Part shown: positions 2,017 to 26,448 of the stretch, in pieces
How the letters are laid out: every line of letters begins with the position of its first letter
Numbering within the stretch: position 1 is the first letter of the stretch
Virus record (IMG/VR): IMGVR_UViG_3300029908_000007
Location: 32,001-96,000 of that record
Strand: one strand, 5' to 3'
DNA: 64,000 nt
From: a virus
Translations under genes and position numbers: made by a program
Notes under the pieces: model-generated
The model's input: only the letters and a program-made list of their open reading frames with translations
Told to the model about the DNA's origin: nothing
The model's database searches: none

Positions 2017-3243
2017 ATGTCCTTGCTTAAGCATCTCCGCAAAGCTCTTACCGAAGAGTACTCGCTGAAGAAAGCTGAGGATCCCGTTGCCTACGCTAAG
2101 ACCGCTTCCACTGGTTTCATTCTTGCTCACCCTGTAAAGATCAACGGCGAAAGTCACAGAAAAGATAATGGTATCGATTACCATTCCACTGTAAAATTCT
2201 TCGATAAAGAAAAAGACAACCACGACGACGCCCACAAAACCGCTTCCCAATTAGACCTCACCCCACCCGATCCCAAAGAAACCCATATCGGCACCAATGT
2301 GATTAAAGATCGCATGGGTAACGACGTATACGCGATAACTTTGCATGGCAAGCACGCCGACAAGCTCAAAGAGAATCATAAAAAGTTCGATCACATGGGT
2401 CACAAAGAAAACTATGACTGGAACGCCCACATCAGTGTGCCTAAAGCCGTACACGATGAAATCAAAGCCAGCGGCCATAAGACCGCGCATGAAGCCGGAA
2501 TTGAATTCGGGCCAGCACAGCTGAAGCGTGGCAAAGAAGTTATTCATACTTATAAATTAAAAGAGCCGATGAAAAAGTCCGAAGGCGACGCTCCCTCAAC
2601 CGTCAAGCCTCCTGTCAAAATCAATCCCGAACACGGTAAGGCCATAGCAGATGCCTACGAGGGTATGAAACACGAGCCCAATAGCCCACACGTCAAAGCC
2701 GCCTACGATGCTTTGACCAACGAGACCGGCAAACAATTCAAAGACATCATGGGATCCGGACTTAAGATCTCGCAAATCAAACCCGGTCAAGCCAATCCCT
2801 ACAAAAGTTCCAAAGAAATGCATAACGACATCAAGAATAACAAACATCTGTGGTACTTCCCAACCGAACAGGGCTTTGGTAGTGGTGGGCAAGCTTCGGA
2901 CCACCCAATGTTGGGCCCCAGCGGTTTCAAACACGACGGCAAGTCTTTGGTACACAACGACATCTTTAGAATCGTTCACGACATCAACGGCCATCACGCC
3001 GGTGGAGAAACCGGATTTGGGCCAACCGGGGAGCACCAAGCCTATCTCACCCATAAGAAAATGTATAGCCCTCTAGCGGGAAAAGCATTGGCTACAGAAA
3101 CTATGGGACAAAATAATTGGGTGAATTTTGGTCCTCACGGAGAAAACAATAGAAAAAATCCAGCCCAGACAAAGTTTGCGGATCAAAAAGCGGGATTGTT
3201 ACCAGAACACATTACCAATGGAGACTGGCACAATGCATCATAA
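2017..3243 (+). CDS. Two-domain head-cargo protein: Acb1-like 2H phosphoesterase plus HDxxGH domain
   Basis: HST (2182-2190) and HIS (2428-2436) 2H motifs; NDIFRIVHDINGH...FGPTGE...ETMGQNNWVNFGP domain; domains bounded by LKKAE and MKKSE. Confidence 0.7.
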   Translation: MSLLKHLRKALTEEYSLKKAEDPVAYAKTASTGFILAHPVKINGESHRKDNGIDYHSTVKFFDKEKDNHDDAHKTASQLDLTPPDPKETHIGTNVIKDRMGNDVYAITLHGKHADKLKENHKKFDHMGHKENYDWNAHISVPKAVHDEIKASGHKTAHEAGIEFGPAQLKRGKEVIHTYKLKEPMKKSEGDAPSTVKPPVKINPEHGKAIADAYEGMKHEPNSPHVKAAYDALTNETGKQFKDIMGSGLKISQIKPGQANPYKSSKEMHNDIKNNKHLWYFPTEQGFGSGGQASDHPMLGPSGFKHDGKSLVHNDIFRIVHDINGHHAGGETGFGPTGEHQAYLTHKKMYSPLAGKALATETMGQNNWVNFGPHGENNRKNPAQTKFADQKAGLLPEHITNGDWHNAS

Positions 3244-4426
3244 TCAGTGGAAGAAAGAATTTGAAGATTCCGTGGAACCATCTTTACGTAAAGCCGAAGA
3301 TCTCCATCTAGTCCACTATTCCCCCCAAGCCGGTCTCAAATACATCGACCCAAAGTTCAGCGGAACCGGCGTCGACAGCAGAACCAAAGGCCGCAGCACC
3401 GAACACCCACACTCCTTCTATTATAGGCATGGAACCGAACCCGAAGAAGTGGTAACCGGTAGAGCTGCTAACAAATACCACGTTAAAATCGGCGCCGACA
3501 AACCCATTTACGATATTGGTAAAGATCCTAAGGGCTTGGTCAGACAAGCCATCGAGGAAAATCAAGGTATTACTAATATGGATACCGTACACTCCAAAAT
3601 CAAAGAACACGGCTTCCATGGATTCCATAATAGCGGGCACCCCAGTCTTTCCAATGTAGTGGCTATGTATCACCCGCAGCCGGTTCAGAACGACAGCATG
3701 CAGAAATCCGAAATCCAACCCCTTCTAAAACCCTGGTCCAGCCAAGCTCAAGCCGCATGGGGTCATTCACCTGAAGGTAAAGCCGCGCTTGGTGGAGAAG
3801 CCGCTGTGAAGGAATGGGATAACGCTACCAAAGGCAAGCATCTGCCAAAGCATGTTAAAAAGAACGAATCCCTCGAAAAAGGCGCACTCAAAAATCTCCT
3901 AACCGCTGGAACCATGGGCGCTGCTTTGGCCTCCGCTGTTCCCTCAGAAGCCCACGCGCCCAATCACGAACCCCTACATCCCCAAGCCGGTGCTCACCCA
4001 ACTACGGGCTACGATCGAAAAAAGATGTTAGACGCTATTTCACAAGTTGAGAGTAGCGGCGGAAAAAATACCGTGCACAAGCCAACCTCCATGGGCCGAG
4101 CATATGGCCGATTTGCCGAAATGCCCGACATGATCCACGACACTATTCGCCTCAACCCCGATCTGAAACGCCAGCATCAAAAAGCCCTAAATCTTCAGGG
4201 TGACGATCTCCACCGTTACATGCAGGACAACCCAAAGTTAGAAGAGCAGATCGCCGATAAACATCTTTCCAGACTCGAACACCATTTCGGCCAGAATCCC
4301 AGCCTAATAGCGTTTTCTTGGAACCAAGGTGTCACAGGTACGAATCGCGCCTTAAATCAAAAACACGACATTTCCTCGCACCCATATGTGCAGAAATTTA
4401 AACACGCCTACGAAGGCAAGGAGTAA
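3233..4426 (+). CDS. Multidomain head-cargo protein: ART-like domain, short linker motif, C-terminal lytic transglycosylase (SLT/lysozyme-like)
   Basis: ATG 3233 after GGAG; LVHYS...FYY...IYD...GFHG; AISQVESSGG...AYGRF...AFSWNQG...YVQKF; separated by LRKAE, MQKSE and LEKGA. Confidence 0.65.
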   Translation: MHHNQWKKEFEDSVEPSLRKAEDLHLVHYSPQAGLKYIDPKFSGTGVDSRTKGRSTEHPHSFYYRHGTEPEEVVTGRAANKYHVKIGADKPIYDIGKDPKGLVRQAIEENQGITNMDTVHSKIKEHGFHGFHNSGHPSLSNVVAMYHPQPVQNDSMQKSEIQPLLKPWSSQAQAAWGHSPEGKAALGGEAAVKEWDNATKGKHLPKHVKKNESLEKGALKNLLTAGTMGAALASAVPSEAHAPNHEPLHPQAGAHPTTGYDRKKMLDAISQVESSGGKNTVHKPTSMGRAYGRFAEMPDMIHDTIRLNPDLKRQHQKALNLQGDDLHRYMQDNPKLEEQIADKHLSRLEHHFGQNPSLIAFSWNQGVTGTNRALNQKHDISSHPYVQKFKHAYEGKE

Positions 4427-4428
4427 TT

Positions 4429-4920
4429 ATGTCAATGAATATTCGCCCCGAAGATATTGATACCATTGAAGACGCAGGTATTTTAGATGGACAACCGGTT
4501 AAACTCATCAGAACCCGTGGTGGATTTTGGATGAGCATTATCAACGGCAAAGTCGTTGCAGGCGGATCTCACCCAGCGATCGTTAAGCACAGTGTGTCTA
4601 AGATGTTCCCTAACTTCCAAGCCGCTCTCTGCAAAAGTGAAAACGCTGGCATGGACGCCATCGTTGACAAACACTCACACTTCTTATCTGACGATCTGCG
4701 TAAAAGTGGTCACGACATCTACAGTATCCAAGAAAACGACGCCATCGAATTCCAAGTCACCAAGCACAACATCAAAGTTGCTGGTATTAACGGTTCCATG
4801 GTTGAGGGCTCCCTATCTTTGGAAGCCATCGACTTCCCCGAAGAGTTCAAAAAATCTCTAGCTGCGGCTACAACCGAAAAAGCTCTCTCTGTTAAAGCTA
4901 AAACCATCCGGATCAAATAA
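4429..4920 (+). CDS. Hypothetical head-associated protein
   Basis: RBS GGAG, coupled to the upstream gene; LCKSE and LRKSG motifs. Confidence 0.6.
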   Translation: MSMNIRPEDIDTIEDAGILDGQPVKLIRTRGGFWMSIINGKVVAGGSHPAIVKHSVSKMFPNFQAALCKSENAGMDAIVDKHSHFLSDDLRKSGHDIYSIQENDAIEFQVTKHNIKVAGINGSMVEGSLSLEAIDFPEEFKKSLAAATTEKALSVKAKTIRIK

Positions 4921-4921: not shown

Positions 4922-5269
4922 ATGTGCGTAGAACTTGTTAAGAGTGAAACCCAAGTCAGTTTTAAACCCGAACTTCCTCTAGAAGAGCAAATCTGTGGAT
5001 GCCAGGAAGCTATTATTGACTGCGAACCCGATTGCCCGAAGGTACTGAAGTTCTTGGCCGAAGTCGAAAAGGCCTGCCAATATGGGAAATCGTTGGGAAT
5101 CAAACTTAGCCTAGTTGATACACACAACTTCGGATTGTTTAAAAAAGTTAAGGATTTAAACCAAGCCATCGCTACTTCTGATATAATACATCAGATAGTT
5201 TTGTTTCACGACAAAGCCGATCGTAGACTAGAAGAGATTGCTAACATGTGTAGGAAACCGAATGAATAA
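4922..5269 (+). CDS. Hypothetical protein
   Basis: Tightly packed ORF; N-terminal LVKSE. Confidence 0.55.
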   Translation: MCVELVKSETQVSFKPELPLEEQICGCQEAIIDCEPDCPKVLKFLAEVEKACQYGKSLGIKLSLVDTHNFGLFKKVKDLNQAIATSDIIHQIVLFHDKADRRLEEIANMCRKPNE

Positions 5270-6811: not shown

Positions 6812-7738
6812 ATGAAACCGAACGCCGAGTACTTTCTCAGAAAGACACTTGGAGAAGACCTTAAAGAGTCGTTAGGCGAAGTCCTATCTAAGTCCGAAGT
6901 CTATAAGCAAGGTACTCGTACTATTACCGATACCGACGATCTTTTTCAAGGTCTTCAAATCGTTCCACGAGCACTACTAAGTCTTTTGGTTAGAGAGTTG
7001 TCTCCCATGCAAATCGGAGAAAATAAAGAAATTCGCATTCCAGGAAAAGAAGACACCACGGTTCAGGTTACCAAGCATGAGCGTGATTCCTATAGTGGTC
7101 AAATAATTCAAAACAACGTTAAAATCAACGACTTTATGCACCGCTCATTACCGGGTTTAGGTTTGGTTTTGATGACAATGCTAGAACTATACGACTTCGA
7201 AGATCTCAAAGAAACTCCTTCCGCCGACCACTCCCATATCAACAAGCTCATCGACGAACGCATGCATCTTCACTCCCTCATCAACCAAGTCGTAGATGGC
7301 AAGCTCATGCACCGCGACGCCGTTGAACAGCTTCTCATGACCAAGCTAAATCAGATGGGCACCGAACATAAAGAGATTAAAGAAGAACACAAAGAAATCA
7401 TGAAGCCCGAAGAACCTAAGGCAACAGTGGTTATTAACATCGAAACCGCTAAAAAACGTCGTCCGTTATCGGAATTCGTGGAAAATCGTAAAAAGAAACT
7501 TGCCAAGAAAGAGCATTTTATAGAAATGAAAAAATCCGAAGAAATTTCATGCCCGGATTGCGGGAACGTTATTTTTTCTGAGGGTGCTTACAGCGGCTGT
7601 ATTTGTTTTGGTGATAGCGATAAAAAGCTTTATGTTAAAAAATCTGAAAACGGCTATATGGTGCGCCCTGGTCGTGGGTGGGATGAAGAGAATCTGGAAA
7701 TGCTTTTGGAAGCTTTGAGGGGTAATAAAAATGGGTAG
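6812..7738 (+). CDS. Hypothetical head-associated protein with C-terminal Zn finger
   Basis: LSKSE, MKKSE and VKKSE motifs; CPDCG...CIC. Confidence 0.6.
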   Translation: MKPNAEYFLRKTLGEDLKESLGEVLSKSEVYKQGTRTITDTDDLFQGLQIVPRALLSLLVRELSPMQIGENKEIRIPGKEDTTVQVTKHERDSYSGQIIQNNVKINDFMHRSLPGLGLVLMTMLELYDFEDLKETPSADHSHINKLIDERMHLHSLINQVVDGKLMHRDAVEQLLMTKLNQMGTEHKEIKEEHKEIMKPEEPKATVVINIETAKKRRPLSEFVENRKKKLAKKEHFIEMKKSEEISCPDCGNVIFSEGAYSGCICFGDSDKKLYVKKSENGYMVRPGRGWDEENLEMLLEALRGNKNG

Positions 7739-8480
7739 CGGCGGCAAGAACAGACTATCCGTTGAAGAAGTTGAGCGGAGGGTTCAACTTGCTCATGGTG
7801 GCATGGTTACAATGGTCGGATCTACCTACAAAGGTATGCTTAAAAAAGCATTGTTCGTCGACAAGGATCATGGGGAATGGTGGACAAAACCGGGTGACGT
7901 AACATTTAAGAAATCGGGCCATCCCTTAAGATCTTTAGAAAAATCAAGAAATACCTTTACGAGTAAATACGGTATTGGTATCATTAATGCCAGTCAAGTA
8001 GAAGAAATAAAAGAAAAAAAGAAAGCAACTACATTCAAAAACCATGGTGTTAAGCATCCTTCTCAGAGTAAGGCGATCAGAGAAAAGGCTCAAAACACGA
8101 CCCTAGAAAGGCATGGGGCTTTATTCCCGTATCAATGTTCAGACATTGCTCTCAAGGCCGCAAAAAAAGTAAACAATCCCAGTACAAAAATTCATTGGAA
8201 AACCGGAGAAGAACTATTTTGTCAAGGCGGATATGAAGCCAAAACTGTTGACTATCTTAATGCCAACCAAATTAACTTCGAATGGCAGCCCAAGACATTC
8301 AAAATGCCTGATGGTAAAACATATCGTCCTGACCTATACCTGTCTGACACAGGCATTTGGGTTGAAATAAAAGGCTGGATGAGAAAAGATGCTGAGTTAA
8401 AGTGGGACTGGCTCAAATCTGAATACCCTAACGCAGAACTTTGGAATCAAAAGAAACTAGAAGAAATGGGGATATTGTAA
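7731..8480 (+). CDS. Homing-endonuclease-like protein (KYG-type repeats plus PD-(D/E)xK nuclease)
   Basis: T...K(Y/H)G...SQ..I.EK repeats; TYRPDLYL...WVEIKGW. Confidence 0.7.
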   Translation: MGSGGKNRLSVEEVERRVQLAHGGMVTMVGSTYKGMLKKALFVDKDHGEWWTKPGDVTFKKSGHPLRSLEKSRNTFTSKYGIGIINASQVEEIKEKKKATTFKNHGVKHPSQSKAIREKAQNTTLERHGALFPYQCSDIALKAAKKVNNPSTKIHWKTGEELFCQGGYEAKTVDYLNANQINFEWQPKTFKMPDGKTYRPDLYLSDTGIWVEIKGWMRKDAELKWDWLKSEYPNAELWNQKKLEEMGIL

Positions 8481-10150
8481 TGGATACTAATACGTCCCAG
8501 CACTTAGTCTTCGCCGGAGATGGCGATAACATTGGTCAAAGACACGCTCGGGCCATTTTGTCCGATGACATCGCTCAAGTAAGAGAAGTTTCGGAACATA
8601 TCACCGAAGGAAATAATTTTGTAAGAGACTTTGTTGAATCCCATGGGGGCGAATGGATTAGTGGCGGCGGCGACGAATTCTCATTTATGGCTCCTCCTGA
8701 GTTTGTGGAGCTTCTCGATCAGCTCCGAAAAGATTATGAATATATAGTTCAAGCCACACTATCCGTTGGATATGGAGATACTATCTCTCAAGCCGGTAAA
8801 GCACTTTTGGTTGCTAAAAGTCGCGGAAAAGATCAAGTCGTACAGTACGAAGATTCGATGGAAGACGAGCTTCAGCGTATCGGTGAAGAAGAAAATTCTC
8901 CCGACGCAGAAGCAAAAAAAATAAAAGGTGTACTTACTAGCGATAACGGCACGCAAGCACAAGAACCTGGAAACGCGCCTCCAGAATCTGACAAGGTATT
9001 GCCAGAAGGATCTGACGCTGCTGTTAACGAACCCACTTCTTGTGAGCCACCAGTTGAAGATAATAATAACGGATATGATTCGGGTTATAAAAATAGCAAT
9101 CCCACCACTAGAAAAGACTCTTATAGAGCCGAGGATATGACTCCTCCTACGATTGCAAAACCTAACCTAAAACAGCAAACGCCGGTCAAAGAAGCGGTTT
9201 CTACCGATATTCAAGAGACCAACCGTCAAATGAATGAAGAACCCGCCAATCCAGATGAAGAGGCTCCTATGATTGAAAAACCAGCACCAAAAGCATACCA
9301 TGGACAAGCTGAGGGCGACGAAGAAGTCCCACAAAGCAATGTTCCACAAAGTGAGGCTCAGCCTAGAGATAACGATAAACCCGGTGATCTTAAATATGGA
9401 CCCGGCGAAGGCGAACAGATTCAGCCCGAAGCCGATGTTCCCGTTGAAAACGCTACCACAGATGAAGCCGAAGCCACTGAAGACCAGGACATGGAAACCA
9501 AACATTGTGAGAGCTGTACTTGCGCAGATCACAAAGACGCAGAAACTACTTTGGACGAACACGTTGACAATGCTCAGGATTTTGAAAATACCTTAGATGA
9601 CGGCCAACCTGAAGGCGCGGAAGAAACTTTAGACCAGCACATCGATAATGCCACCGATATGCAAGATAACATGGATCAAGATGGAATTAGTCGTCCCGAA
9701 GACTATGACGATAAACGCGAAGACATGGGACTTAGCGAAGAAGACTCCGGCGAACCCGACCTAGACGGCGTTCTTCGCGATGGACTTGATGAGCACGCAG
9801 AAAATATCCAGAAAGAAAAAGTTGTCAACATGGTTGGAGAAGCCCTGGAAGGATTCAAGAGTCAGAAAGCAATTCTCGATAAAGCGAAGGAACAAGCGCC
9901 AGAATTGTACGCAAGTTGCATTTCCATGTTACGCGCTATGATCGAACTCTGCTCATTGGCTGGAATCAACGATGGTGAAGCCGAACAAGAAGTTAATGAA
10001 ATCGAAGGTCAGAGTACTGCTCCAGAAGAAACTCCTGGAGAAGAGGGTACGCCAGCTGAAGCCCCTGCTGAAAGCGCATGTCCTAGTTGTGGAAAACCTC
10101 ACGATGAAGCGGCTCCCCAGGAGGGGCCGCCTGGAGCCCCACAGCAGTAA
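8480..10150 (+). CDS. mCpol (minimal CRISPR polymerase, Cas10-palm/GGDEF-like nucleotide cyclase) domain fused to a long acidic region and helical C-terminus
   Basis: VFAGDGDNIG...ILSDD...ISGGGDEF...TLSVGYGDTISQAGKALLVAKSRGKDQVVQY matches the mCpol pattern; ~400-aa D/E/P-rich tail. Confidence 0.8.
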   Translation: MDTNTSQHLVFAGDGDNIGQRHARAILSDDIAQVREVSEHITEGNNFVRDFVESHGGEWISGGGDEFSFMAPPEFVELLDQLRKDYEYIVQATLSVGYGDTISQAGKALLVAKSRGKDQVVQYEDSMEDELQRIGEEENSPDAEAKKIKGVLTSDNGTQAQEPGNAPPESDKVLPEGSDAAVNEPTSCEPPVEDNNNGYDSGYKNSNPTTRKDSYRAEDMTPPTIAKPNLKQQTPVKEAVSTDIQETNRQMNEEPANPDEEAPMIEKPAPKAYHGQAEGDEEVPQSNVPQSEAQPRDNDKPGDLKYGPGEGEQIQPEADVPVENATTDEAEATEDQDMETKHCESCTCADHKDAETTLDEHVDNAQDFENTLDDGQPEGAEETLDQHIDNATDMQDNMDQDGISRPEDYDDKREDMGLSEEDSGEPDLDGVLRDGLDEHAENIQKEKVVNMVGEALEGFKSQKAILDKAKEQAPELYASCISMLRAMIELCSLAGINDGEAEQEVNEIEGQSTAPEETPGEEGTPAEAPAESACPSCGKPHDEAAPQEGPPGAPQQ

Positions 10151-12229: not shown

Positions 12230-12501
12230 TGAAACTACCCAAAACCCCCAAACTCGGTGCTACTTTGGGCTCGACTCTGGGTACAACTTTAGGTACGCCC
12301 GCCGCTAGTGCTCCTAAAGACATAACCAAAATTGGTAAGCAAGGTGTGGCTGCGAAAATGCCAAAGCCAAAAGCGCCACGCGATGCATTTGCGCCGCCAA
12401 GCGTGTTTTTTGGGAAAAGTGAAGATAAGCCAAAACATCTAAGTGTCTGTAAATTAAAGGATTTTATTGAACATAAAATGAAAAAACGGGCTCAAAAATG
12501 A
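12229..12501 (+). CDS. Small basic hypothetical protein
   Basis: TAATG coupling; TLG repeats; FFGKSE motif. Confidence 0.55.
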   Translation: MKLPKTPKLGATLGSTLGTTLGTPAASAPKDITKIGKQGVAAKMPKPKAPRDAFAPPSVFFGKSEDKPKHLSVCKLKDFIEHKMKKRAQK

Positions 12502-16258: not shown

Positions 16259-16789
16259 ATGGCTGGAGCACAACTACCTAATTTAAATCCCACCAATGGT
16301 GGAACAGGTCAAAGCTACACCGTAACTGGTGGAAGAGCTTTGCTTTATTTACCTAATCAATCTGGGCAACTGGTGTTGGCTGGGACCTTTGATACCGTTA
16401 GCAGAGGCCGAGGACTTGGGACTGAAGCAATTCATACCCTCGGTCAATATTCGGCCCGCGAAATTGCAATTACTTCTTACAACGAAGTTACTGTAAATTG
16501 TAGCGGATTCCGTGTAGTCGGAGCTGGAACTACGGTTCTTGGTCATTTCCCCACACTTGCTGAGATCTTAAACTATTCATCTGTCACAATCAAAGTTGTT
16601 GACAGGCAGACTGGCGATACGATTTTAGTCGTAACCGGCGCTGTTCCTACTACAGACAATGAGAACTATTCGAGCCGAGCCACCACCAAGACATCGATTT
16701 CTTATACGGGAATCGCGGCTTTCGATGAATCGACCACTGATTCTTCGGGTAATCCGACAGATGGTGAAGGCACGCCAAGTTGGCCATAA
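16259..16789 (+). CDS. Tail tube protein
   Basis: 176 aa directly after the sheath gene; strong RBS AAGGAG; LGQYSAREI...V.VNCSGFRV...IKVVDRQTG. Confidence 0.75.
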   Translation: MAGAQLPNLNPTNGGTGQSYTVTGGRALLYLPNQSGQLVLAGTFDTVSRGRGLGTEAIHTLGQYSAREIAITSYNEVTVNCSGFRVVGAGTTVLGHFPTLAEILNYSSVTIKVVDRQTGDTILVVTGAVPTTDNENYSSRATTKTSISYTGIAAFDESTTDSSGNPTDGEGTPSWP

Positions 16790-16875: not shown

Positions 16876-18210
16876 ATGAATAGAACTTGGACTTTAGAAA
16901 AATTACAGAACGAAGCTATAAAATACACAAAAAGATCTGCTTTCCAAAAGGGAAGTAAGACGGCCTACAATACGGCTCAGCGCAAAAACCTACTGGACAT
17001 TATCTGTAAGCACATGGAAGCCTTTAACATCAATGGCGACAGAAATCCTAATTTTAAATGGTCCCTGGATATTTTAAAACAAGAAGCTCTGAAGTACAAT
17101 TCAAAAAGCGAATTTAAAGATAAAAATCCAAAAGCTTACCACGCAGCTTGGTACAGCGATGTGCTAGATGAAATCTGCTCCCATATGAAAAACCTTCTCC
17201 ATTATTGGACGGACGAAGAATTGGCCAAAGAAGCTTTAAAACATAAAAGCAGAACCAAATTTGAAGAAAAAAGCGGAAGTGCCTATCTAACCGCTTGTAG
17301 ACGAGGTCTTATAGATGAAATCTGCGTACATGCTCCAAAAAATGAGAAGAAAAGCTATGTACAAAAAGAAATATTTGATTTCATTAACTCTTTTTATCCT
17401 GATACCGTATACGATACTAGAAAAGTAATATCTCCGTTGGAACTAGATATTTACATACCATCATTGAAGCTAGCCATTGAATATTGTGGCCTATATTGGC
17501 ACTCAGAAGAATATAAAGAAAATAGCTACCATTATGATAAAATGAAATTTTGCAATGAAAAAGGTATAAGACTGATTACAATATTTGAAGATGAATGGCT
17601 AAAAAGGCAGGATCAAGTAAAGAACCTTCTTAAGTCGGTTATCAATAAAAATGAGTTCAAAATAATGGGAAGGAAAACTAAAATTAAAGAAGTGCCCAAA
17701 AAAGAAGCTAAAGAATTCTTAGAACAAAATCATATTCAAGGGTCTTCTGTATTTGAAATATCGTTTGGTTTGTATTATTTTAACGAACTACAAGCAGTAA
17801 TTACCGGCAACAAACATCATAGACAAGGCCATTCCGACACGCTAGTTTTAAATAGATTGGCTTTTAAGACCGATGTGTCTATTGCTGGAGGCCCTTCTAA
17901 ACTTTTCAATCGTTTAGTGAGCTATGCGAAAGAAAGGGGATACAAGAGGTTAATTTCCTGGTCCGACAATAGGTGGTCTGAAGGAAATGTTTACAAAAAG
18001 TTAGAATTTGAATTAACTGAAAATTTACCTGCCGACTATTCTTATTTTAGCAATCAGTCTAGAATATCCAAACAATCTTGTCAGAAAAAGATGTTAATTA
18101 AAAAAGGTGCTAAAGGAGATATGTCTATGACCGAAAAAGAATTGGCTTTAAGTCTAGGTCTATATAGAATTTATGACTGCGGTAAGAAACAGTGGTCCAT
18201 TAATTTATAG
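16876..18210 (+). CDS. Hef-like homing endonuclease: three helical repeats, PD-(D/E)xK domain, GNAT/Mom-like C-terminal domain
   Basis: W(T/S)...L..EA.K...F...AY..A....LD.IC.H repeats; ELDIYIP..KLAIEYCGLYWHS; FLEQNHIQG...LNRLAFK...ISWSDNRWS. Confidence 0.75.
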   Translation: MNRTWTLEKLQNEAIKYTKRSAFQKGSKTAYNTAQRKNLLDIICKHMEAFNINGDRNPNFKWSLDILKQEALKYNSKSEFKDKNPKAYHAAWYSDVLDEICSHMKNLLHYWTDEELAKEALKHKSRTKFEEKSGSAYLTACRRGLIDEICVHAPKNEKKSYVQKEIFDFINSFYPDTVYDTRKVISPLELDIYIPSLKLAIEYCGLYWHSEEYKENSYHYDKMKFCNEKGIRLITIFEDEWLKRQDQVKNLLKSVINKNEFKIMGRKTKIKEVPKKEAKEFLEQNHIQGSSVFEISFGLYYFNELQAVITGNKHHRQGHSDTLVLNRLAFKTDVSIAGGPSKLFNRLVSYAKERGYKRLISWSDNRWSEGNVYKKLEFELTENLPADYSYFSNQSRISKQSCQKKMLIKKGAKGDMSMTEKELALSLGLYRIYDCGKKQWSINL

Positions 18211-18276: not shown

Positions 18277-20130
18277 ATGGCGACAGAAACTCCTAAAACC
18301 GGCCCAACATATATCCATGGTGTTGGATCTAGCACTGCAATTGATACTGCCGGAGAAATTGTGGATTTGGCCGGTATCGACTGTTCTGCACTTCTGCAAG
18401 GCCCATTTTCCTGGGAACATCAAAATACTCAACCAAATCAACTAGTTGGAAAAATATTAGAATACAAAAAGATCTTTTCTGAAGCTGATTGCGAAAACGA
18501 ACATCACAAACGCTTTTGGGAAAAATGCCAAAATCCGTTCCTTTATGTAATGGGACGTCTTTTTGATGATAAAAAGGACTCTTCAAAAGAAGTCGCTGCC
18601 TTATTCATAGACGATGCGGAACATCCTGATGAGCCCCCAATGGTTGGATTCAGCATCGAGGGCAGCAAAGTCGACAAAAAGGGTATTATAGTGACAAAAT
18701 CTATTGCTCGCAAAGTAACCGTGACAAATGCTCCCGCCAATAAACAGTGCGTCGCCGAACTCATTCCCGGCCCTGAAGTCAAACAAAAATCCGAAGACTC
18801 CATCTTTAAATCCGAATTCACCCATACCATCGATCTTGTAAAAACCGAACTTAAAAAAGACGGCAACATGCCCGCTCCTGCGGCCTCACCAAAACCTGAT
18901 CTGGGTTGGACCGCTAATCCTACCCCTTTTGGTAATCCTATGAGCAATCTAATGTCAGGACTTGGAATGGGTAAAAAAGAAATGAAAAAATCCCAGGTTC
19001 CTGGTAGCAAATATCCGCCGAAGTCTGATGTTAAGCCTGGAACTCCTCCCCAAGAAAAAGTTGGAGGCATTCCTAAGTTTGGACCCATTGCTAAACCAAC
19101 ACCCAAACCTTTAGAAAAAGCCCGTGTTGATGAAGGCAAGACTCCGGAACGAAAAGCTTGGGATAGATCTGCTAGAAATGATAGAACTGGCACCACAACT
19201 ACAACTTGGATTAAACGTCCTAGTGCGGTTGGAGAATTGCTGGGTGCAAAACCTAAAAAAGAAACTCAAACCAATACTCGTTCCCATGCAGCCGCCGGTA
19301 ACATCGATATGAGAATCGGAACTGCCGCAACCCCAGGACATGCGCCCAGAACATCGTCTACACATGGCGGTGGGACCGTTACGTCGAGTAGAAAAGTAAT
19401 AGGTACACCTGCTAAATCAATGCAAAAAGCAATGACCGCTGGATCCGGTATGGCTGGACCCGGTACCCTTAGTGGTGGTGCCGCGCTTAGTAAGGAAAGT
19501 CTTGACAAGAAGATGAAAAAGGCCGAACTTTTGAAACGCGCCAAAGAAGCCTACCAGACCTGGGAAAAGAGAGAAGCTTTTGAGAATTTTATGGCAAAAA
19601 GTATGCCAGAACTTACGAAGCATGAAATTATTGCTATTGGTCAAACGATTGCTTTGTCTAAGTCCTTAAAAGCTGAAGCCAAATTAGCCAAGATGCTAAC
19701 TTCTAAAGAAGCTATTGATGAGAACGAAATCGGGACCAAGTTCGACAAGAACATGGCAGGCGACAATATCAGTTCTTATGTTTCGCCTGCAACTGGCAAT
19801 CTAGGTGCTTCTGAAGATTTTAAGAAAGCTGAAAAGAAAGCCCCTGGTGAATATGGTAATGTTGAGCCACATACTAGCCATAAAGGTATGATGGGTTTAG
19901 GTTTCGACTTTCACATGAAACAGAGTGGGATCCATAAGGAACACGCCGAAAAAGCCCATACTAGCGGAAATAAAGATTTGGGCCAGAAGCACCGTGAAAT
20001 GGCCGAAATGCATCGCATGTATACTCACGCTCTTCCTCATGAAAAAGATGAGCCGGGTCGTGATTATTCTTCCGCTGAAAAAAGCGCTAAAAAATTAAGG
20101 ATTGCCTTAACAAAATCTGAATCTGAATAG
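18277..20130 (+). CDS. Prohead protease with a long scaffold/cargo-like C-terminal extension
   Basis: IHGVGSSTAIDTAGEIV...SWEH...VGFSIEG...VTVTNAPAN (HK97/U35-type His-Ser protease); many K-S/A motifs in the tail. Confidence 0.8.
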   Translation: MATETPKTGPTYIHGVGSSTAIDTAGEIVDLAGIDCSALLQGPFSWEHQNTQPNQLVGKILEYKKIFSEADCENEHHKRFWEKCQNPFLYVMGRLFDDKKDSSKEVAALFIDDAEHPDEPPMVGFSIEGSKVDKKGIIVTKSIARKVTVTNAPANKQCVAELIPGPEVKQKSEDSIFKSEFTHTIDLVKTELKKDGNMPAPAASPKPDLGWTANPTPFGNPMSNLMSGLGMGKKEMKKSQVPGSKYPPKSDVKPGTPPQEKVGGIPKFGPIAKPTPKPLEKARVDEGKTPERKAWDRSARNDRTGTTTTTWIKRPSAVGELLGAKPKKETQTNTRSHAAAGNIDMRIGTAATPGHAPRTSSTHGGGTVTSSRKVIGTPAKSMQKAMTAGSGMAGPGTLSGGAALSKESLDKKMKKAELLKRAKEAYQTWEKREAFENFMAKSMPELTKHEIIAIGQTIALSKSLKAEAKLAKMLTSKEAIDENEIGTKFDKNMAGDNISSYVSPATGNLGASEDFKKAEKKAPGEYGNVEPHTSHKGMMGLGFDFHMKQSGIHKEHAEKAHTSGNKDLGQKHREMAEMHRMYTHALPHEKDEPGRDYSSAEKSAKKLRIALTKSESE

Positions 20131-20190: not shown

Positions 20191-20553
20191 ATGGGCACAA
20201 AAGTGTTTTGTTACAGGAATTTACACCAAAAAGGCGTCGTTTGGTCAGTAAAAAATGTTAAAACCGGATTAGTAATAGATAGATCTAAAACCGTATACAT
20301 TTCAATGGCCGATCTCATAGTTTCTCAAGCCGGACGCGATAGAGTGATAAGAGAGAAGAGAAAGCATGTCCACGCCGGTATCAGGGGTAAAAGGATCAAA
20401 GCAGCCCCTAAGAATGTGGTTTGGATTAAAGCTACTTACAATCCATACTTATATAACTCTTTTGTTACTTCCGAAGATGAAATTCCTATTCATTCTGCCA
20501 GATATGCTAAATTAAATAGGTTTGGTTTGTGGATTGGAAACCTTAAGCGTTGA
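20191..20553 (+). CDS. Conserved hypothetical phage protein
   Basis: VFCYRNLH...WSV...GRDRVIREKRKHVHA...YNPY pattern; own promoter and RBS. Confidence 0.65.
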   Translation: MGTKVFCYRNLHQKGVVWSVKNVKTGLVIDRSKTVYISMADLIVSQAGRDRVIREKRKHVHAGIRGKRIKAAPKNVVWIKATYNPYLYNSFVTSEDEIPIHSARYAKLNRFGLWIGNLKR

Positions 20554-21145
20554 AATATCTAGCATTCCCAACAGGATGTAGGTCGATATGAATCCATGTT
20601 GGAGTATTGCGTTCCATCCTAATCCCGTACTTCTCTAAAAATGGTTCCAAGATCCCATGCGTTTGTTCTATTGTAAGTTTAGGACTGCAATCGAAATCGC
20701 AAGCCAAAAACTGGGCATGGACATCGTTTGGAATTGCCTTGACTACTTGAGCGTTATACTCCGGAGAACGATACATACAATGCACGGATATAGGGCACCC
20801 CAGCAACGTCCTAATTTCTTCCATCTTATTGCAAAGTACTACTAGTTTTGCTTTCCCATCATCAGTTAAGCCGTCTGCTGCCGTAGCCAGTCGATTCCAA
20901 CTATGTAAAGTAACGGCATCTCCCACAGTGAAATGGGGGGTAATGGAGTAGTCCTTGTTGGTCCAGTCGATCGCCCCCACAGGGGTGATCCCAGCAGCAG
21001 GCGAGGAAGACTCAGGAGCCACCGCAGGTTCTTCCTTAGGCGCCCCAATAGGGATATCTACCGAGATCTCTGTCTTTCCATCAGCCTTATTACTAAGAAA
21101 ACTTAACAGTATCTTACCCAATGTAGCCCAAATCGAATCGCCCAT
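20543..21145 (-). CDS. Endolysin, peptidase M15A-like (Zn D-Ala-D-Ala peptidase fold)
   Basis: HFTVGD...YRSPEYN...HAQFLACD...WIHID; RBS AAGGAG; AATCTTTA upstream. Confidence 0.8.
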   Translation of the reverse strand: MGDSIWATLGKILLSFLSNKADGKTEISVDIPIGAPKEEPAVAPESSSPAAGITPVGAIDWTNKDYSITPHFTVGDAVTLHSWNRLATAADGLTDDGKAKLVVLCNKMEEIRTLLGCPISVHCMYRSPEYNAQVVKAIPNDVHAQFLACDFDCSPKLTIEQTHGILEPFLEKYGIRMERNTPTWIHIDLHPVGNARYFNA

Positions 21146-21207: not shown

Positions 21208-21522
21208 ATGAGATTAGACATAGTTTTTGGGTCGGATGGGACAAAAAAGAGAGTAGTTTGGGATCAATCTCTTGAGTCCTTCCCAAAGCTCATGTTGTAC
21301 CAGGGCAAGAAATGGGAATGGGCAATGTATAAGGAAACACCATACGCGGATTACGAACTCATTTATTCCCAACTCCCTACCTATGACCCCAATTTCTACG
21401 TGAACGACTACACGGTTTTCGAAGACAGATTTGAGAAAAGCATTGGCTGCGAATGCGGAGCACATTGGACCAGCTTTCCAAATTTTCACATGTTTTATTG
21501 TAAAAAATGGGTAGCCTGGTAA
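21208..21522 (+). CDS. Hypothetical protein with C-terminal Cys/His cluster
   Basis: CECGAH...H..YC; promoter upstream. Confidence 0.6.
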   Translation: MRLDIVFGSDGTKKRVVWDQSLESFPKLMLYQGKKWEWAMYKETPYADYELIYSQLPTYDPNFYVNDYTVFEDRFEKSIGCECGAHWTSFPNFHMFYCKKWVAW

Positions 21523-21890
21523 TGGGTTACAAAAGCCTCTACACAGAACTCGCCTCTGCTTTAGATCACCTAGGTGTAGCGGTTTGCGATCACGACTACA
21601 TGGGCTATTGCTTTCAAACCCTGGGTCTCAGAGGTTTTATCTATATCAAAAGTCGCCTGACCTACAAGGAGAAGTACATGGCACTCTGTCATGAAACCGG
21701 CCACCTGTTTTACATGAAAAAGGGTAAAACGTTGAACTGGTCGAAAAAGCCCAGAACCGAAGAACAAGCCAATTGGTTCGCCATGCAACTGCTTAGACGC
21801 AACGGAATCGACGTCGAAGAATACAAAGAATTTTACAACAAAGCATTAGTAGCTGTTAAAAAAAGAAAGAAATCGTGGTTTGAAATATGA
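21522..21890 (+). CDS. ImmA/IrrE-like Zn metallopeptidase
   Basis: LCHETGH...EEQANWFA. Confidence 0.7.
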   Translation: MGYKSLYTELASALDHLGVAVCDHDYMGYCFQTLGLRGFIYIKSRLTYKEKYMALCHETGHLFYMKKGKTLNWSKKPRTEEQANWFAMQLLRRNGIDVEEYKEFYNKALVAVKKRKKSWFEI

Positions 21891-21918: not shown

Positions 21919-22680
21919 TTAATCGCGCTGTTTGGCGAGTTCGTCGTGGTCGGCATTGATGTAGGTGATGTGGCCGCTTTTGTTGAACCCATAACCCTGT
22001 GGAACATAAATCATAGTACAGCGGCAGTGTGGGTGCAAAAGCAGGATGGAAGGAAAATCTTCTCCCCTTACGTGATAGCCACCGGAAAGCTCTGACAGTT
22101 TAAATAAACGGGGTTGTCCGGAAGGAGTTAGGTGGACTTTTACACACTCCTTGCAGGTCACATTGTCTCTAATAACGATGAATGCCACGGTTGGATCTTT
22201 ATCGCCGGTTTCCGCAGCTTTCCTTGAGATATCCATCAAAGCGCCGAGATTACGAGTTTTCGTGGCTTCTGAGGCCGCAATCCTCTCCATACCGCTCTTG
22301 GCCTTACCCAGTTCTTCTTGTACAACCTGGTTCAGGGCTTCCTCTGGTATGGGTTGATTGGCGATCCTAGCCTCTCTGGCGAGCCCGTCAAGGCGCTCCG
22401 AGATGGCTGTGGTGGTCTTAGCCTTCAAAGACTCGATATACCCAAAGGCACCCCCTAGGATGCCTTTAATGACGTCGTTTTCGGTATGATTGAGGTATCG
22501 ATTGTTCATTGCCTGGATGAACAGCGTGGCCAGGGTAACGCCCTCGGCGAAGCCTATTAGGGTGATTTTCTTATGGTGGAGTTTGGGAATAGGGCCTAAA
22601 AGGCGCAGGGCGGTCTTATCGAAAAGGTCTTCGACTACTCTGTTGATTTGCTCTTTGGACTGAGAAGAGATGCCATACAT
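21919..22680 (-). CDS. Phage Mu gpF-like minor head protein
   Basis: RIAASE...D.VTCKEC...HPHCRC; downstream of portal. Confidence 0.75.
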   Translation of the reverse strand: MYGISSQSKEQINRVVEDLFDKTALRLLGPIPKLHHKKITLIGFAEGVTLATLFIQAMNNRYLNHTENDVIKGILGGAFGYIESLKAKTTTAISERLDGLAREARIANQPIPEEALNQVVQEELGKAKSGMERIAASEATKTRNLGALMDISRKAAETGDKDPTVAFIVIRDNVTCKECVKVHLTPSGQPRLFKLSELSGGYHVRGEDFPSILLLHPHCRCTMIYVPQGYGFNKSGHITYINADHDELAKQRD

Positions 22681-22891: not shown

Positions 22892-23530
22892 TCAATCCTT
22901 CTTAACGACTCCATCCACATTGAGAATATTAGAAATGTCTGAAGCCGCTTTTGATTCTTCTTGAGCCCACTTTGCGAAGACGTCGCCGACGATTTTTTCC
23001 TGCATACTGAGAGCTTTCTTGGCGGGTTCCGGCAGGTTGGCCTGGAGTCGTGGGGTGAAGTTAAGAGCAGCCTTAGGGGCTTTACCCATTTTGGTGTTCT
23101 TGATGGCGTCCATGGATTTGGTAAGGTTGATCTGAATTTGAAGTGATTTAATATCTGAAAGCGTCTTCTTGAGATCGCCGAGTTCCATGGAAGTGATTTC
23201 GGATTTGCCAAGCATCCCCTCAAGTTTGGAAATGTGTTGATCGAGTTCGTCGCCATTGGGGTTCTGAGAAACGGGTTGACCCGGCTGTTCCGGGGCTCCG
23301 GCTTCTTCGCCAGGTGCGGCTTCTTCGCCGGGTTGGCCGGGTTGGCCGGGCTGTTGGCCGCCCGCTGCGGCTTGTGCCATAGCGTTGGCATCTTGAACCT
23401 GTTGTGCGGCTTGATCGAGTTGAGATTGCTGGAGACCGGCTTCCACTCCCAACCTGAAAGCCAGGTCAACGGTGCTCTGAAACTTTGTCTTAAGATCTTT
23501 GTATTTTGCTTTGTAGTCGGTTAATGACAT
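22892..23530 (-). CDS. Hypothetical head-associated protein (QPG-rich linker)
   Basis: RBS GAGGT; LGKSE and LTKSM motifs; lies in the portal operon. Confidence 0.65.
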   Translation of the reverse strand: MSLTDYKAKYKDLKTKFQSTVDLAFRLGVEAGLQQSQLDQAAQQVQDANAMAQAAAGGQQPGQPGQPGEEAAPGEEAGAPEQPGQPVSQNPNGDELDQHISKLEGMLGKSEITSMELGDLKKTLSDIKSLQIQINLTKSMDAIKNTKMGKAPKAALNFTPRLQANLPEPAKKALSMQEKIVGDVFAKWAQEESKAASDISNILNVDGVVKKD

Positions 23531-23531: not shown

Positions 23532-24587
23532 TTAGGCTACCTCTTTGAGTGAAACTTCTAAAAATTTAAGGCATTGGTCGACACATGCTTGTCGATCTAG
23601 ATCCCAATCGGTTTCTTTGATATGAAGAATTTCTATCCCTTTATTAGCAAACCAGAAATCCTTGATTTTCTGATAGTTGATCAGATCTTCGTCAGGCCAA
23701 TTAGGCCTACCTCTTTTAAGTCCTTCAAAGCTATGATGATATCTTCCATCAAATTCAATACCTTTACGAAGTTCTGGAATATAGATGTCTAACTCAAAAC
23801 CGTGAATATGAGGTTTTCCTTCTATTTTAACTTTTCGATCCCAAAATTTCTGAGCCTTTGGGTAAAGAGCTTTTATTACATTAAAAAGGTCTATTTCAGC
23901 CAATGAAGAGCCAGTATAGTTACTGTTTGGGAAAACTATTTTATCTAAGAGCTTCCTTTTCCATGCAACCCTGTACAGGTTAGGATTTTCCTTAAGAAAT
24001 TCACCCTGACTCCTATATTTAGAACCCTCTTTTATAACGTAAGAATTGGTATAAAGCGCAAGAGGATGGTTTTCTCCTATAGAATCTGTCATATGACCAC
24101 AAAGATCCTCTAATAGTCCTCTTCTATAGATAGCCATATAAGAATCAAAATCGTGTTCCCTAAAAAGAGATATTTTATCATAAAGAAGGGCTATTTTCTT
24201 TAACTTTTTGTGCGTGTGCTTTTTATTGGAATGCTCGTCTCCCGCCGGATTTGCCTCAACAACATGATCTGTAATTTTGTTAAAAATGCCTCTATTGTGA
24301 GCAAGCACATACTCACTAGGGTATTTTTTTCTGAATTCTTTTTTTGTTTTACAACTTCTGGCTTTTTTCTCAATAGCTGCGTCAGTATGCCTAAATTTAG
24401 GATGATTTTCTCCAAACAAAGTTCCGCTGATCATATGAGAACAAGCTTCTTTAAGAATTCGTCTTTTGTGACATAAAGTGTAAGCACTTCTATCCCCCTT
24501 AGAAAAAGCTCCAGGTGTTTCAAAGGATAGCGCTCTTTTAAACAATTCTTCATTAGAAACTGGTTTGTTGCTTTTCCTTTTCTTCAT
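23532..24587 (-). CDS. Homing-endonuclease-like protein, paralog of 153..1160 (four helical repeats plus nuclease)
   Basis: HIHGFELDIY...GIEFDGRYHHSFE...W.DED..NY..IKD...LHIKE..W..D.QAC closely matches ORF 153; GENHP linkers. Confidence 0.75.
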   Translation of the reverse strand: MKKRKSNKPVSNEELFKRALSFETPGAFSKGDRSAYTLCHKRRILKEACSHMISGTLFGENHPKFRHTDAAIEKKARSCKTKKEFRKKYPSEYVLAHNRGIFNKITDHVVEANPAGDEHSNKKHTHKKLKKIALLYDKISLFREHDFDSYMAIYRRGLLEDLCGHMTDSIGENHPLALYTNSYVIKEGSKYRSQGEFLKENPNLYRVAWKRKLLDKIVFPNSNYTGSSLAEIDLFNVIKALYPKAQKFWDRKVKIEGKPHIHGFELDIYIPELRKGIEFDGRYHHSFEGLKRGRPNWPDEDLINYQKIKDFWFANKGIEILHIKETDWDLDRQACVDQCLKFLEVSLKEVA

Positions 24588-24588
24588 T

Positions 24589-26448
24589 TTAGGCGCCTTC
24601 TTCCTCATCAAGAAGCATATCTTCTATTTCCATGGAAAGCAAATCTTTTATTAGTTCGGGTGGTCTAGGAGCATATAAGGCCTTGATAGCGTTAGGATTT
24701 GCTTGCATTAAAAGTTGAAAATTTTGAAGCCAGAAGGCATCACGTTTGAATTTAAGTAAAGGATCAAAAATTGCGCCAGGGTCTCCAAAGAACCTAGTTC
24801 TGACTTCGCCGACGTTCGAATAAAAATCGAGTACCTGTCTATAACGCTCATTAAACGGAACCGCTCCGCCCATTGCCTTACCAACCGGATCTAGATCAAC
24901 TTCTCTTTGTAGCGTATCGTAGTCGTAGAAAAGTGCGGAGTCCTGTTGAAGACGTGCGGCTTCCTGCTCCTTTGATTCGGAATCGAGGCCGGAAAGTTTT
25001 ATTTCTACGATTTGTGCGAGTTCGGCGTCGATGATTGGAAGCAGTCGTTGATTTAAAAATACCTGCCAGCCTAAGATCAAAGGGCGCAAGCCGGAATCAC
25101 GAGCGGCGGTCATTTTAAATTCGTTATTACTTTCGCTGAGAGTTTGAGAATTTGTTCCCTTAGACAGATGTCCATACCCAGGAATTTCATCAGGCGACAC
25201 ACCGAATGCCGCCAAAATATTTCTGGCTATTTGATCGTAAGTATAAGAGAATTCGGAATCGCCAAGTTTGTCCGCCGTACCAATCCACGCGACGTCATCT
25301 TCTTTCGCGATCCCAAAGATCGGGGTTCTAAAAGCGTTGGAGACAGAATTGATAGATGCGTTGAATTGCATTTTAATTGCATCAAGCATCTGTTGATCAA
25401 CCTCGTCGCTCTTGATAACTAACATCCCTTTGGCTGATTTACCGTTACTGAAATATGTTTTCCAGTAGGCTTCGATAGAAATATGCGTGGTGATGCAATT
25501 CATACAGGTATCTAGTGGTGAAACCGGATAGCCGTTGTGCTCGATGTCGGTGCTTGGGAAGAGATTGTAGACAAGCATTTCATTCGACGTAAACGCCTGT
25601 CGTGGCTGCATTTCAATAACTTGTAGCCAGGTATACTCGTCTTCCTTGAGTTTTTGCATGTCGATGTTAAACGACGCGCCTTCCATTTGCTCCAATGCTT
25701 TTAGCGCAAGTTCTCTTAGATTATTTCCAACGCTTTCGCCTTTACGAACGGCACGAAAAATTGTAGCAATATCTACGGGACGAAATCTATGAAAAGGATA
25801 ATTACCGTCTTTGTCGGGATCCTTAGATCTGTCGTAGATAATTTCAGTGCCATGCGATCCAAAAGCAAGTCCGTTTTGAGTTTGAATGCTCAAGTAATCC
25901 GATAACACCATTTGGTCTTGGTGTTCCAAACCCTCGGTGTGTCCGCAATTAAGCAAAATCTTTTCCAGACGTTTGATTCTTTCCACGACTTTTGTGTACT
26001 GCTCAGGAGTCAATAGTTTTAAAAACTCCGGTCTGATATCAACTTCAACACCAACGTCGAAACGGTCCTTTTTGAGGTGACCGTAGAGTTTCATGATGTT
26101 GCCGCGAGTTCTTAGAATGGCGGCGACAAGATGGTCGGTGACACGGATGGCCTTGATGAGTTCGGGAGGAAGCAGACGGGTACGGGCTTTGAACAAGCCT
26201 AAAAAATTTGATTGCGGTGCTGGGAGTTCGGAAAATGCAAGAGAGGGAGCTTTTTTCTTAGCAGCGGTTCCAGACAGAACTCTAATAGCTTCTGATAATG
26301 GTTTGGTTTCGCCCTTGCGTAGATCAGTTCCTGGAACTGCCAAAGCTTCTAACGCTTTGGCCAAAGACGTTAGGCTATGCTCTTGGCTTCCTTCTTCAGG
26401 ACTATCACCAAAGGTAATGCTGACGGTTTTTTTATCTTTGACGTCCAT
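24589..26448 (-). CDS. Portal protein
   Basis: 619 aa downstream of terminase; FRPVD.ATI, GYPVSPL, YFSNG...KGML, AFGVSPDEI motifs. Confidence 0.85.
   Translation of the reverse strand: MDVKDKKTVSITFGDSPEEGSQEHSLTSLAKALEALAVPGTDLRKGETKPLSEAIRVLSGTAAKKKAPSLAFSELPAPQSNFLGLFKARTRLLPPELIKAIRVTDHLVAAILRTRGNIMKLYGHLKKDRFDVGVEVDIRPEFLKLLTPEQYTKVVERIKRLEKILLNCGHTEGLEHQDQMVLSDYLSIQTQNGLAFGSHGTEIIYDRSKDPDKDGNYPFHRFRPVDIATIFRAVRKGESVGNNLRELALKALEQMEGASFNIDMQKLKEDEYTWLQVIEMQPRQAFTSNEMLVYNLFPSTDIEHNGYPVSPLDTCMNCITTHISIEAYWKTYFSNGKSAKGMLVIKSDEVDQQMLDAIKMQFNASINSVSNAFRTPIFGIAKEDDVAWIGTADKLGDSEFSYTYDQIARNILAAFGVSPDEIPGYGHLSKGTNSQTLSESNNEFKMTAARDSGLRPLILGWQVFLNQRLLPIIDAELAQIVEIKLSGLDSESKEQEAARLQQDSALFYDYDTLQREVDLDPVGKAMGGAVPFNERYRQVLDFYSNVGEVRTRFFGDPGAIFDPLLKFKRDAFWLQNFQLLMQANPNAIKALYAPRPPELIKDLLSMEIEDMLLDEEEGA

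Follow-up and report, generated by a model that had tools for sequence, protein, structure and literature searches.

The stretch analysed here, referred to below as the window, comprises 64,000 nucleotides (bases 32001-96000) of one 162,308-bp phage contig, IMG/VR record IMGVR_UViG_3300029908_000007, and between window positions 2017 and 26448 the proteins of its head gene cluster are repeatedly punctuated by a short peptide, hydrophobic-x-Lys-Ser/Ala-Glu. Its strict form is [LMIFV]-x-K-[SA]-E, and PHI denotes the hydrophobic residue below. The motif is almost certainly functional, and we consider it, with a probability of about 0.7, to be the sequence by which this phage's prohead serine protease (gene at 18277-20130) recognizes its substrates. 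The most likely cut would be PHI(P3)-x-K(P1)|S/A(P1')-E(P2'), and a second flavour, PHI-x-K|A-L-E, is proposed from sequence for the capsid protein, the portal and two leader peptides. Most likely this code belongs to a Herelleviridae-type prohead protease and has been expanded, in the lineage of the Myxococcus phage Mx1, to the scaffold, the tail of the protease itself, the portal and a set of shuffled, enzyme-bearing head proteins.

Within the 7,945 amino acids (aa) of window genes between 2017 and 26448 the strict motif occurs 17 times, as against a mean of 1.77 and a maximum of 7 matches in 2,000 trials in which each protein was shuffled separately; the remaining 12,794 aa of the window hold none, where 3.2 were expected. 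A preliminary description of this DNA had anticipated such an enrichment in the head cluster. Every pentapeptide that it listed is present in the open reading frame (ORF) to which it had been assigned, and the motif is missing, as had been noticed, from the tail sheath and tube proteins, their orthologues included. The whole 162-kb genome contains 27 strict matches, 20 of which fall within 28 kb (genome positions 27091-55530), with three contributed by a scaffold-like gene. The shortfall in the rest of the window, like the 8 strict matches in the ~50,000 aa of the remaining genome, is too weak for a claim of depletion outside the head set. As a look-elsewhere control, 400 sister patterns of the form PHI-x-a-[SA]-b were scored; the pair (K,E) came first, with 17 matches versus 1.69 expected (Poisson P 4e-12), and (K,L) was a distant second, with 8 versus 1.75, while a tripeptide scan of the region returned KSE and KAL as the two most over-represented. 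Looser variants had originally been counted together with the strict ones. The K-A-L-E flavour withstood closer inspection, whereas the other variants without Glu did not, being 2.3-fold enriched against 2.7-fold for K-[SA] dipeptides overall, and several of them are probably due to chance. Small NUDIX proteins adjoining the protease genes of relatives (L041:3125-3520:-, L045:4980-5381:- and similar) match the relaxed motif via the NUDIX box only (L-x-K-G-E within G-G-H-L-x-K-G-E); such matches arise systematically when Gly is allowed at P1' and were discarded as false positives.

No close DNA relative turned up when the region was compared with 50,697 phage records by megablast. At the protein level the sole match was Mx1, the nearest cultured relative, whose proteins are 27-53% identical and largely syntenic; conservation was also assessed in IMG/VR relatives (66 capsid-gene loci, 20 portal loci and 6 further loci, with a capsid identity of 56-95%), many of them from 150-177-kb contigs. 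In Mx1, 16 of the 20 genome-wide strict matches are situated inside the structural module (5.6-39.3 kb). The proteins bearing them include the scaffold-like protein, the portal (at both of its ends, N- and C-terminal), a kinase-like protein and a multi-enzyme protein of 1479 aa. Orthologue alignments of the well-sampled sites give column identities of 0.9-1.0 for Lys and 0.9-1.0 for Glu, compared with 0.22-0.45 for the flanks; P2 is free, and the small-residue position accepts S, A, T, G or N. Such columns are seen at the ORF4429 and ORF22892 sites, at the three ORF6812 sites and at every one of the three scaffold sites. When relatives were grouped by orthology, the density of strict sites was highest in the scaffold-like protein (21 per 1000 aa, with all 57 members carrying the motif), followed by the groups of ORF12538 (8.7), ORF4429 (6.0), ORF22892 (3.6), the protease (3.1), ORF6812 (2.9), ORF3233 (2.5), ORF2017 (2.2), an mCpol protein (1.3) and the portal (0.7), and it fell to a background of 0-0.3 per 1000 aa in the capsid, sheath, tube, fibre and terminase proteins, the endonucleases and several other structural ORFs.

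The protease gene (18277-20130, plus strand) encodes 617 aa, with a conserved N-terminal domain (aa 1 to ~170) that matches PHROG 1028, head maturation protease, followed by a 440-aa hypervariable tail. Since this domain has no Pfam match and no PDB sequence match, a fold search was needed. With a predicted model of high confidence (predicted local distance difference test, pLDDT, 84.6), the best PDB fold was T4 gp21 (5jbl; Z 9.7, root-mean-square deviation 3.8 over 120 aa), and herpesvirus proteases scored Z 9.1 (varicella-zoster virus) and 7.3, as against 5.6 or less for unrelated folds; herpesvirus proteases also occupied nearly all leading rows of a Foldseek search. Profile alignment to SPO1 gp3.2 by hhalign gave a probability of 98.6% (E 1e-15), and 17 relatives without exception have His48 and Ser126 (the latter in G-F-S-I/V-E-G), candidate catalytic residues that SPO1 gp3.2 has as well. 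As modelled, the domain adopts the fold of T4 gp21 and herpesvirus assemblin, and SPO1 gp3.2 is its homologue. Relatives' proteases align only over their first ~180 residues, the remainder being hypervariable, with total lengths of 302-1239 aa. In the tail, sites occur at aa 176, 187, 413, 515 and 611 (nucleotides (nt) 18802-18816, 18835-18849, 19513-19527, 19819-19833 and 20107-20121), and the first of these, I-F-K-[ST]-E at aa 176, marks precisely the junction of domain and tail; it is conserved, and the model has a pLDDT <50 there. The tails of relatives reach ~1060 aa and include cargo-type modules bounded by sites, such as the C-terminal domain of ORF2017 (long-tailed genes at L069:5772-8171:-, L032:1656-3887:-, L043:2358-6053:- and L001:13002-16721:+), so that the protease gene itself appears, from its sequence, to serve as a cargo carrier. 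A search for related loci with the whole protease recovered one locus only, because the search patterns were derived from the low-complexity tail. At most a few kb separate the protease gene from the scaffold and capsid genes in Mx1 and most relatives; here its distance from the portal is ~4.5 kb.

The capsid protein gives an indication of which bond would be cut. Its gene (L005:11676-13061, minus strand) lies just upstream of the window, and the product, 53% identical to the Mx1 capsid, is a full-length distant homologue of Herelleviridae capsid proteins by sequence (22-27% identity by tblastn over 95-99% of its length to SPO1 and to Bacillus, Listeria, Staphylococcus and Lactobacillus phages; phrog_752, E 1e-41), in agreement with the Herelleviridae-type capsid invoked in the preliminary description. 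The capsid of Listeria phage A511 is reportedly cut at K|S. The N-terminus L-x-K-A-L-E-[AV]-G is retained in nearly all 55 relatives, and its Lys10, invariant in the alignment, matches SPO1 L-N-K-A-L-E-A-G and Listeria-phage A-L-K-S-F-T-T-G. Staphylococcal-phage capsid chains, as deposited in PDB entries 9row, 9rox and 9roz, start exactly at the aligned Ser, immediately after that Lys, and the full-length phi812 capsid sequence (5lii) has V-V-K preceding it. Alignment of the capsid L-x-K|A-L-E with this chain start makes a cut after Lys the best reading, and the same is favoured by the hydrophobic-x-Lys-small core common to all flavours. The K-A-L-E flavour is found also at portal residue 29, with a close K-[AT]-L-x-E variant at residue 7 of ORF2017 and residue 9 of ORF6812. 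In SPO1, the portal, protease and scaffold bear PHI-x-K-S-E or PHI-x-K-S-x, the scaffold as many as eleven times: in gp3.3 (L099:5186-5920:+), a single L-S-K-S-E is accompanied by ten PHI-x-K-S-x repeats. Judging from these occurrences, Herelleviridae head modules may generally use a Lys-Ser cutting code.

Next to the capsid gene, and likewise just outside the window, lies the most motif-rich gene, for the 284-aa scaffold-like protein (L005:13091-13945, minus strand), which has no sequence similarity to SPO1 gp3.3. The portal protein (24589-26448, minus strand; PF04860, PHROG 12) carries its sites in an N-terminal extension, LAKAL-EAL of the capsid-type flavour at aa 29 (nt 26350-26364) and LRKGE at aa 43 (nt 26308-26322); a core motif is found at aa 31-49 in 13 of 28 relatives, and the Mx1 portal has LAKSE at aa 45. 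A further match, VRKGE at aa 234, is probably not a site and sits inside the folded, conserved part.

The other carriers are predicted internal proteins, most of which open with an amphipathic leader of 17-37 residues that ends in a site, related leaders ending in L-x-K-S-E; this N-terminal helical leader, rather than the motif, is the likelier targeting element. ORF2017 (2017-3243, plus strand) consists of a leader, a 2H phosphodiesterase module (aa 20-184) and a viral domain (aa 188-408, phrog_3170), with LRKAL at aa 7 (nt 2035-2049), LKKAE at aa 17 (nt 2065-2079) and MKKSE at aa 185 (nt 2569-2583). In its model (pLDDT 88.7) the flanking sites lie in low-confidence segments outside the compact fold. 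His56 and His138 are invariant in H-x-S/T motifs in 18 sequences, and Foldseek matched the module with probability 1.0 to the phage BCSR5 phosphodiesterase (9q2g), Usb1 and YjcG, with further fold matches to the poxvirus cGAMP phosphodiesterase and Acb1 (7t27) and weak profile matches to 1vdx and 2d4g; the modelled structure identifies aa 20-184 as a 2H phosphodiesterase. For the C-terminal domain, the ESM Atlas returned only unnamed viral relatives. When ORF2017 and partial homologues were aligned together, the 2H domain came out misaligned, and that alignment was dropped. ORF3233 (3233-4426, plus strand) has a leader, a module of unknown type and a C-terminal SLT-like lytic transglycosylase module, with LRKAE at aa 18 (nt 3284-3298), MQKSE at aa 156 (nt 3698-3712) and VKKNE at aa 208 (nt 3854-3868). 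The isolated C-terminal domain scores 23 bits against PF01464, for which the cut-off is 21.3; four of 15 homologues match, and one Glu is invariant. Alignment A5 had no PDB sequence match.

Among the smaller carriers, ORF4429 (4429-4920, plus strand; 163 aa) is split by LCKSE at aa 67 (nt 4627-4641), a site kept in 32 of 35 relatives with column identities of 1.00 for K, 0.91 for S and 0.97 for E, compared with 0.36 for the flanks. ORF6812 (6812-7738, plus strand; 308 aa) has sites at aa 25, 239 and 275 (nt 6884-6898, 7526-7540 and 7634-7648), where among 18 relatives Lys is invariant and Glu is present in 94-100%, P1' being S, T, G or N at aa 239 and 275. Its last two inter-site pieces (aa 239-308, window 7526-7738) are short and Cys-rich (C-P-D-C-G) and are conserved in Mx1, which has VVKSE at aa 244; their sequence possibly denotes zinc-ribbon modules. 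ORF12538 (12538-13224, plus strand; 228 aa) has a helical leader ending in LVKSE at aa 30 (nt 12625-12639) and LGKAE at aa 123 (nt 12904-12918), and ORF22892 (22892-23530, minus strand; 212 aa), which adjoins the portal, has LGKSE at aa 107 (nt 23198-23212), followed by conserved LKK[TS]L and LTKS[LM], with a core motif kept in 22 of 29 relatives. ORFs 12538 and 12229 have too few relatives for a firm judgement, the former with the motif in four of four group members, and the latter (12229-12501, plus strand; 90 aa) a weak case in which FGKSE at aa 61 (nt 12409-12423) is retained in one of only two. ORF4922 (4922-5269, plus strand; 115 aa) was not upheld: its LVKSE at aa 5 is found in one of 13 relatives and is probably due to chance, with a group density of 0.5 per 1000 aa, about background.

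The modules between sites are exchanged among relatives, as the preliminary description had supposed from this genome. The ORF2017 C-terminal domain stands alone behind a 19-aa leader, or upstream of an ORF3233-like module, or, directly after a site, inside the tails of two protease genes; it is joined to a GNAT domain in a 952-aa protein of the related locus L048, and three relatives have the 2H domain fused with the SLT module. There are 76 internal homology breakpoints, of which 37% fall within 12 aa of a site, compared with 9.7% for random positions. Comparison of inter-site segments revealed homologous modules shared by some carriers; single-linkage clustering of these segments was used only qualitatively because uncut fusions merged the 2H and SLT modules. 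In the 1479-aa protein of Mx1, the sites at 129, 606 and 1251 are all outside its GNAT (156-271), ART-PolyVal (649-896) and NUDIX (923-1033) domains. ART-PolyVal was found in Mx1 and in the related locus L054; neither it nor MPTase-PolyVal nor a MuF anchor was found by Pfam in the window's own proteins, the multi-module members of which have two modules each.

It is possible to suggest how such a code would work. Inside the prohead, the protease would release itself from its long tail, cut this tail and the scaffold-like protein into small pieces, and trim ~10 aa off the capsid protein and ~45 aa off the portal. It would also remove the 17-37-aa helical leaders from a set of internal proteins and split these into single modules (2H phosphodiesterase, SLT-like lysin and viral domains), and the enzyme modules would probably be retained inside the head and reach the host together with the DNA. 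Modules could be exchanged freely between carrier genes and into protease tails across the family, since a five-residue linker would suffice for cutting. A bolder proposal, which we put forward tentatively and rate somewhat below an even chance, is that the five-residue site is the punctuation of a plug-and-play encapsidation system, in which a domain of any kind, given PHI-x-K|S-E on either side and a place behind a helical leader or in the protease tail, would enter the prohead, be cut free, stay in the head and be injected with the DNA. Mx1-like phages would then swap anti-defence enzymes as cassettes, such as a 2H phosphodiesterase directed against cyclic or 2'-5' nucleotide alarm signals, ART, NUDIX, GNAT, a kinase or the SLT lysin.

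Several observations weigh against a protease site cut after Lys, or at least against its details. Glu is as conserved as Lys in the site alignments, and the T4 gp21 and phiKZ/SPN3US enzymes cut after Glu, so the bond could be E|x. The start of a PDB chain is the depositor's sequence, counts across relatives are not phylogenetically independent, and P1' at aa 25 of ORF6812 is mostly V or F in relatives, which is odd for a small-residue site. The alternative of the same system cutting another bond, PHI-x-K-S-E|x, with Lys and the small residue as P3 and P2 determinants, draws on that invariant Glu, on the I/L-x-E| specificity of T4 gp21, the best structural match, on the A-x-E specificity of SPN3US gp245 and on the capsid N-terminus, where K-A-L-E|A-G is compatible with an A-x-E rule. 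We nevertheless regard it as unlikely, though a serious competitor: in the homologous Herelleviridae capsid the deposited chain begins with the residue after Lys and no Glu follows (S-F-Q/T-T-G), PHI-x-K-[small] is common to the K-S-E and K-A-L-E flavours while the spacing from Lys to Glu differs, and K-[SA]-E lacking a hydrophobic residue two places before the Lys is enriched only 3.7-fold, compared with 34-fold when it is present, a ratio that is itself circular because its substrate set was picked by the motif. The notion that the motif reflects a Lys/Glu/Ser-rich composition, or the shared ancestry of paralogous linkers, can draw on the excess of K-[SA] dipeptides in carriers and on the modules that some of them have in common, yet it is largely refuted and hardly worth entertaining, since shuffling never reached the observed count, the pattern is a single outlier among 400, K and E are fixed while P2 varies, and the motif recurs in unrelated protein families, in Mx1 and in SPO1.

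Two other explanations concern what the motif does rather than whether it is real. It might be a short docking signal that is left uncut and directs proteins to the prohead, for instance by binding the phage GroEL, the portal or the scaffold; its position near the N-termini of many carriers fits such a role, which is nonetheless very improbable given that the motif is also found between domains, at C-termini, in tandem copies 5 aa apart and at the joint between the protease and its tail, is densest in proteins that other phages degrade, and coincides in the capsid with the start of the deposited staphylococcal-phage chain. A less remote suggestion, still on the doubtful side, is that the motif is cut in core or scaffold parts that are simply degraded and expelled, with no enzyme retained or ejected and no cargo effectors. 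The densest carriers are indeed the scaffold-like protein and the protease tail, most T4 and SPN3US propeptide fragments leave the head, and ejection is only inferred for the cargo modules. On the other hand, modules with intact catalytic signatures (both HxS/T motifs of the 2H domain, the invariant Glu of SLT, and the GNAT, ART-PolyVal, NUDIX and kinase domains of Mx1) have no plausible scaffolding role, and polyvalent proteins delivered by virions are known to contain domains of the same types (PMC5512222). Recognition by the prohead protease is the reading that we prefer, and the motif does behave as the earlier proposal of a protease site would have it: conserved while its flanks drift, present in the scaffold, the protease tail and the portal and capsid N-termini, and placed in low-confidence linkers beside folded domains.

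The principle of protease-processed head proteins is already well known from T4 and phiKZ/SPN3US. One close likeness is to the Herelleviridae head module (SPO1 gp3.2 protease, gp3.3 scaffold and gp6.1 capsid; Staphylococcus phi812/K and Listeria A511-type phages), in which the protease domain and the capsid are homologous, the capsid N-terminus aligns on the same Lys, and the SPO1 portal, protease and scaffold carry related sites. The phage described here differs in its site-studded protease tail of 440 aa (~1060 aa in relatives), in a nearly fixed P2' Glu and in the reach of the code into shuffled multi-enzyme proteins; we found no statement in the literature of a Herelleviridae code beyond the capsid cut. 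The T4 system shares the protease fold, the removal of short N-terminal leaders at a motif (IPI-III and Alt, at I/L-x-E sites), self-cutting by the protease and scaffold, portal-proximal and internal proteins as substrates. Unlike in T4, P1 is likely to be basic here rather than Glu, leaders are 17-37 aa long compared with 10, and sites also occur between the domains of multi-domain proteins. The herpesvirus assemblin-scaffold polyprotein (UL26/UL80), to which the fold matches also point, likewise has its protease fused upstream of a scaffold-like region. Its self-cleavage sites have a hydrophobic P3 and a small P1'. There, however, P1 is Ala, and there are two sites only and no enzyme cargo.

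In phiKZ (gp175) and SPN3US (gp245), many head proteins are processed at A-x-E, their N-terminal propeptides (20-254 aa) being cut at several positions; the protease loses a C-terminal piece, and ejection proteins are among the substrates (PMC10052503). In comparison, the present phage, known from sequence alone, has another motif, a much smaller genome (162 kb) and a cargo of recognizable enzymes exchanged between genes. Polyvalent proteins, as described by Iyer et al. 2017 (PMC5512222), are encoded among virion genes, are extensively mosaic and combine unrelated effector domains, 2H, ART, NUDIX and GGDEF-type domains among them, in a single chain; virion delivery and processing by assemblin-like peptidases were predicted, and no cut-site was named. 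The 2H and phrog_3170 modules of ORF2017, the unknown and SLT modules of ORF3233 and the GNAT, ART-PolyVal and NUDIX domains of Mx1 follow the same plan. In that description the peptidase is C-terminal, whereas here it is N-terminal with cargo in its tail, and here a defined five-residue site punctuates the modules.

The motif supplies a testable cutting rule for a large, almost unstudied group of ~150-177-kb myoviruses (Mx1 and >60 metagenomic relatives) linked to Herelleviridae, and it gives the computational concept of polyvalent, virion-delivered proteins a precise form, in which both the cut positions and the enzyme are predicted. If this is true, a 2H phosphodiesterase may already be in the cell, delivered along with the DNA, by the time the host can raise a nucleotide alarm. 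Host enzymes of the cyclic oligonucleotide-based antiphage signalling system (CBASS) have been reported to sense prohead-protease activity via bait loops (10.64898/2026.03.04.709575), and the code of a phage family therefore also predicts candidate sensors. In addition, foreign proteins could be loaded into phage heads by means of the five-residue site and a leader.

The region was annotated by PHROG and Pfam scans, which also identified a fibre-like protein (1162-2016), the tail sheath (14098-16236), a tube-like protein (16259-16789), an endolysin (20543-21145, minus strand) and the large terminase (27495-29351, minus strand). Six HNH/homing-endonuclease genes are dispersed in the head-tail module, at 153-1160, 7731-8480, 13227-13823, 16876-18210 and 23532-24611 (minus strand) of the window and at L005:10173-11606:-, between a GroEL-like gene and the capsid gene; homing endonucleases probably explain the differences in gene order from Mx1 and many relatives. 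The GroEL-like chaperonin itself is encoded two genes from the capsid gene (L005:8376-10142:-, genome 22376-24142; phrog_5725, E 7e-75), and Mx1 likewise encodes one. Between the endolysin and the portal-side genes, a 127-aa protein (21507-21890, plus strand) matches the phrog_87 'metallo-protease' family (E 1e-11) and is, on this match, a possible second protease candidate. The neighbouring 253-aa gene (21919-22680, minus strand), which adjoins ORF22892 and the portal, has a weak match to phrog_4728, 'head morphogenesis' (E 3e-4), has a clear Mx1 orthologue and is free of the motif; it could encode a MuF/gp7-like head anchor. Finally, inside the structural gene block, a 569-aa protein (8441-10150, plus strand) has an N-terminal mCpol (minimal CRISPR polymerase, Cas10-palm-like) domain (PF18182, E 6e-16). 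The window copy is without a strict site, 43% of its orthologues bear the cut-site motif, and in Mx1 a 'nucleotide cyclase' adjoins the protease.

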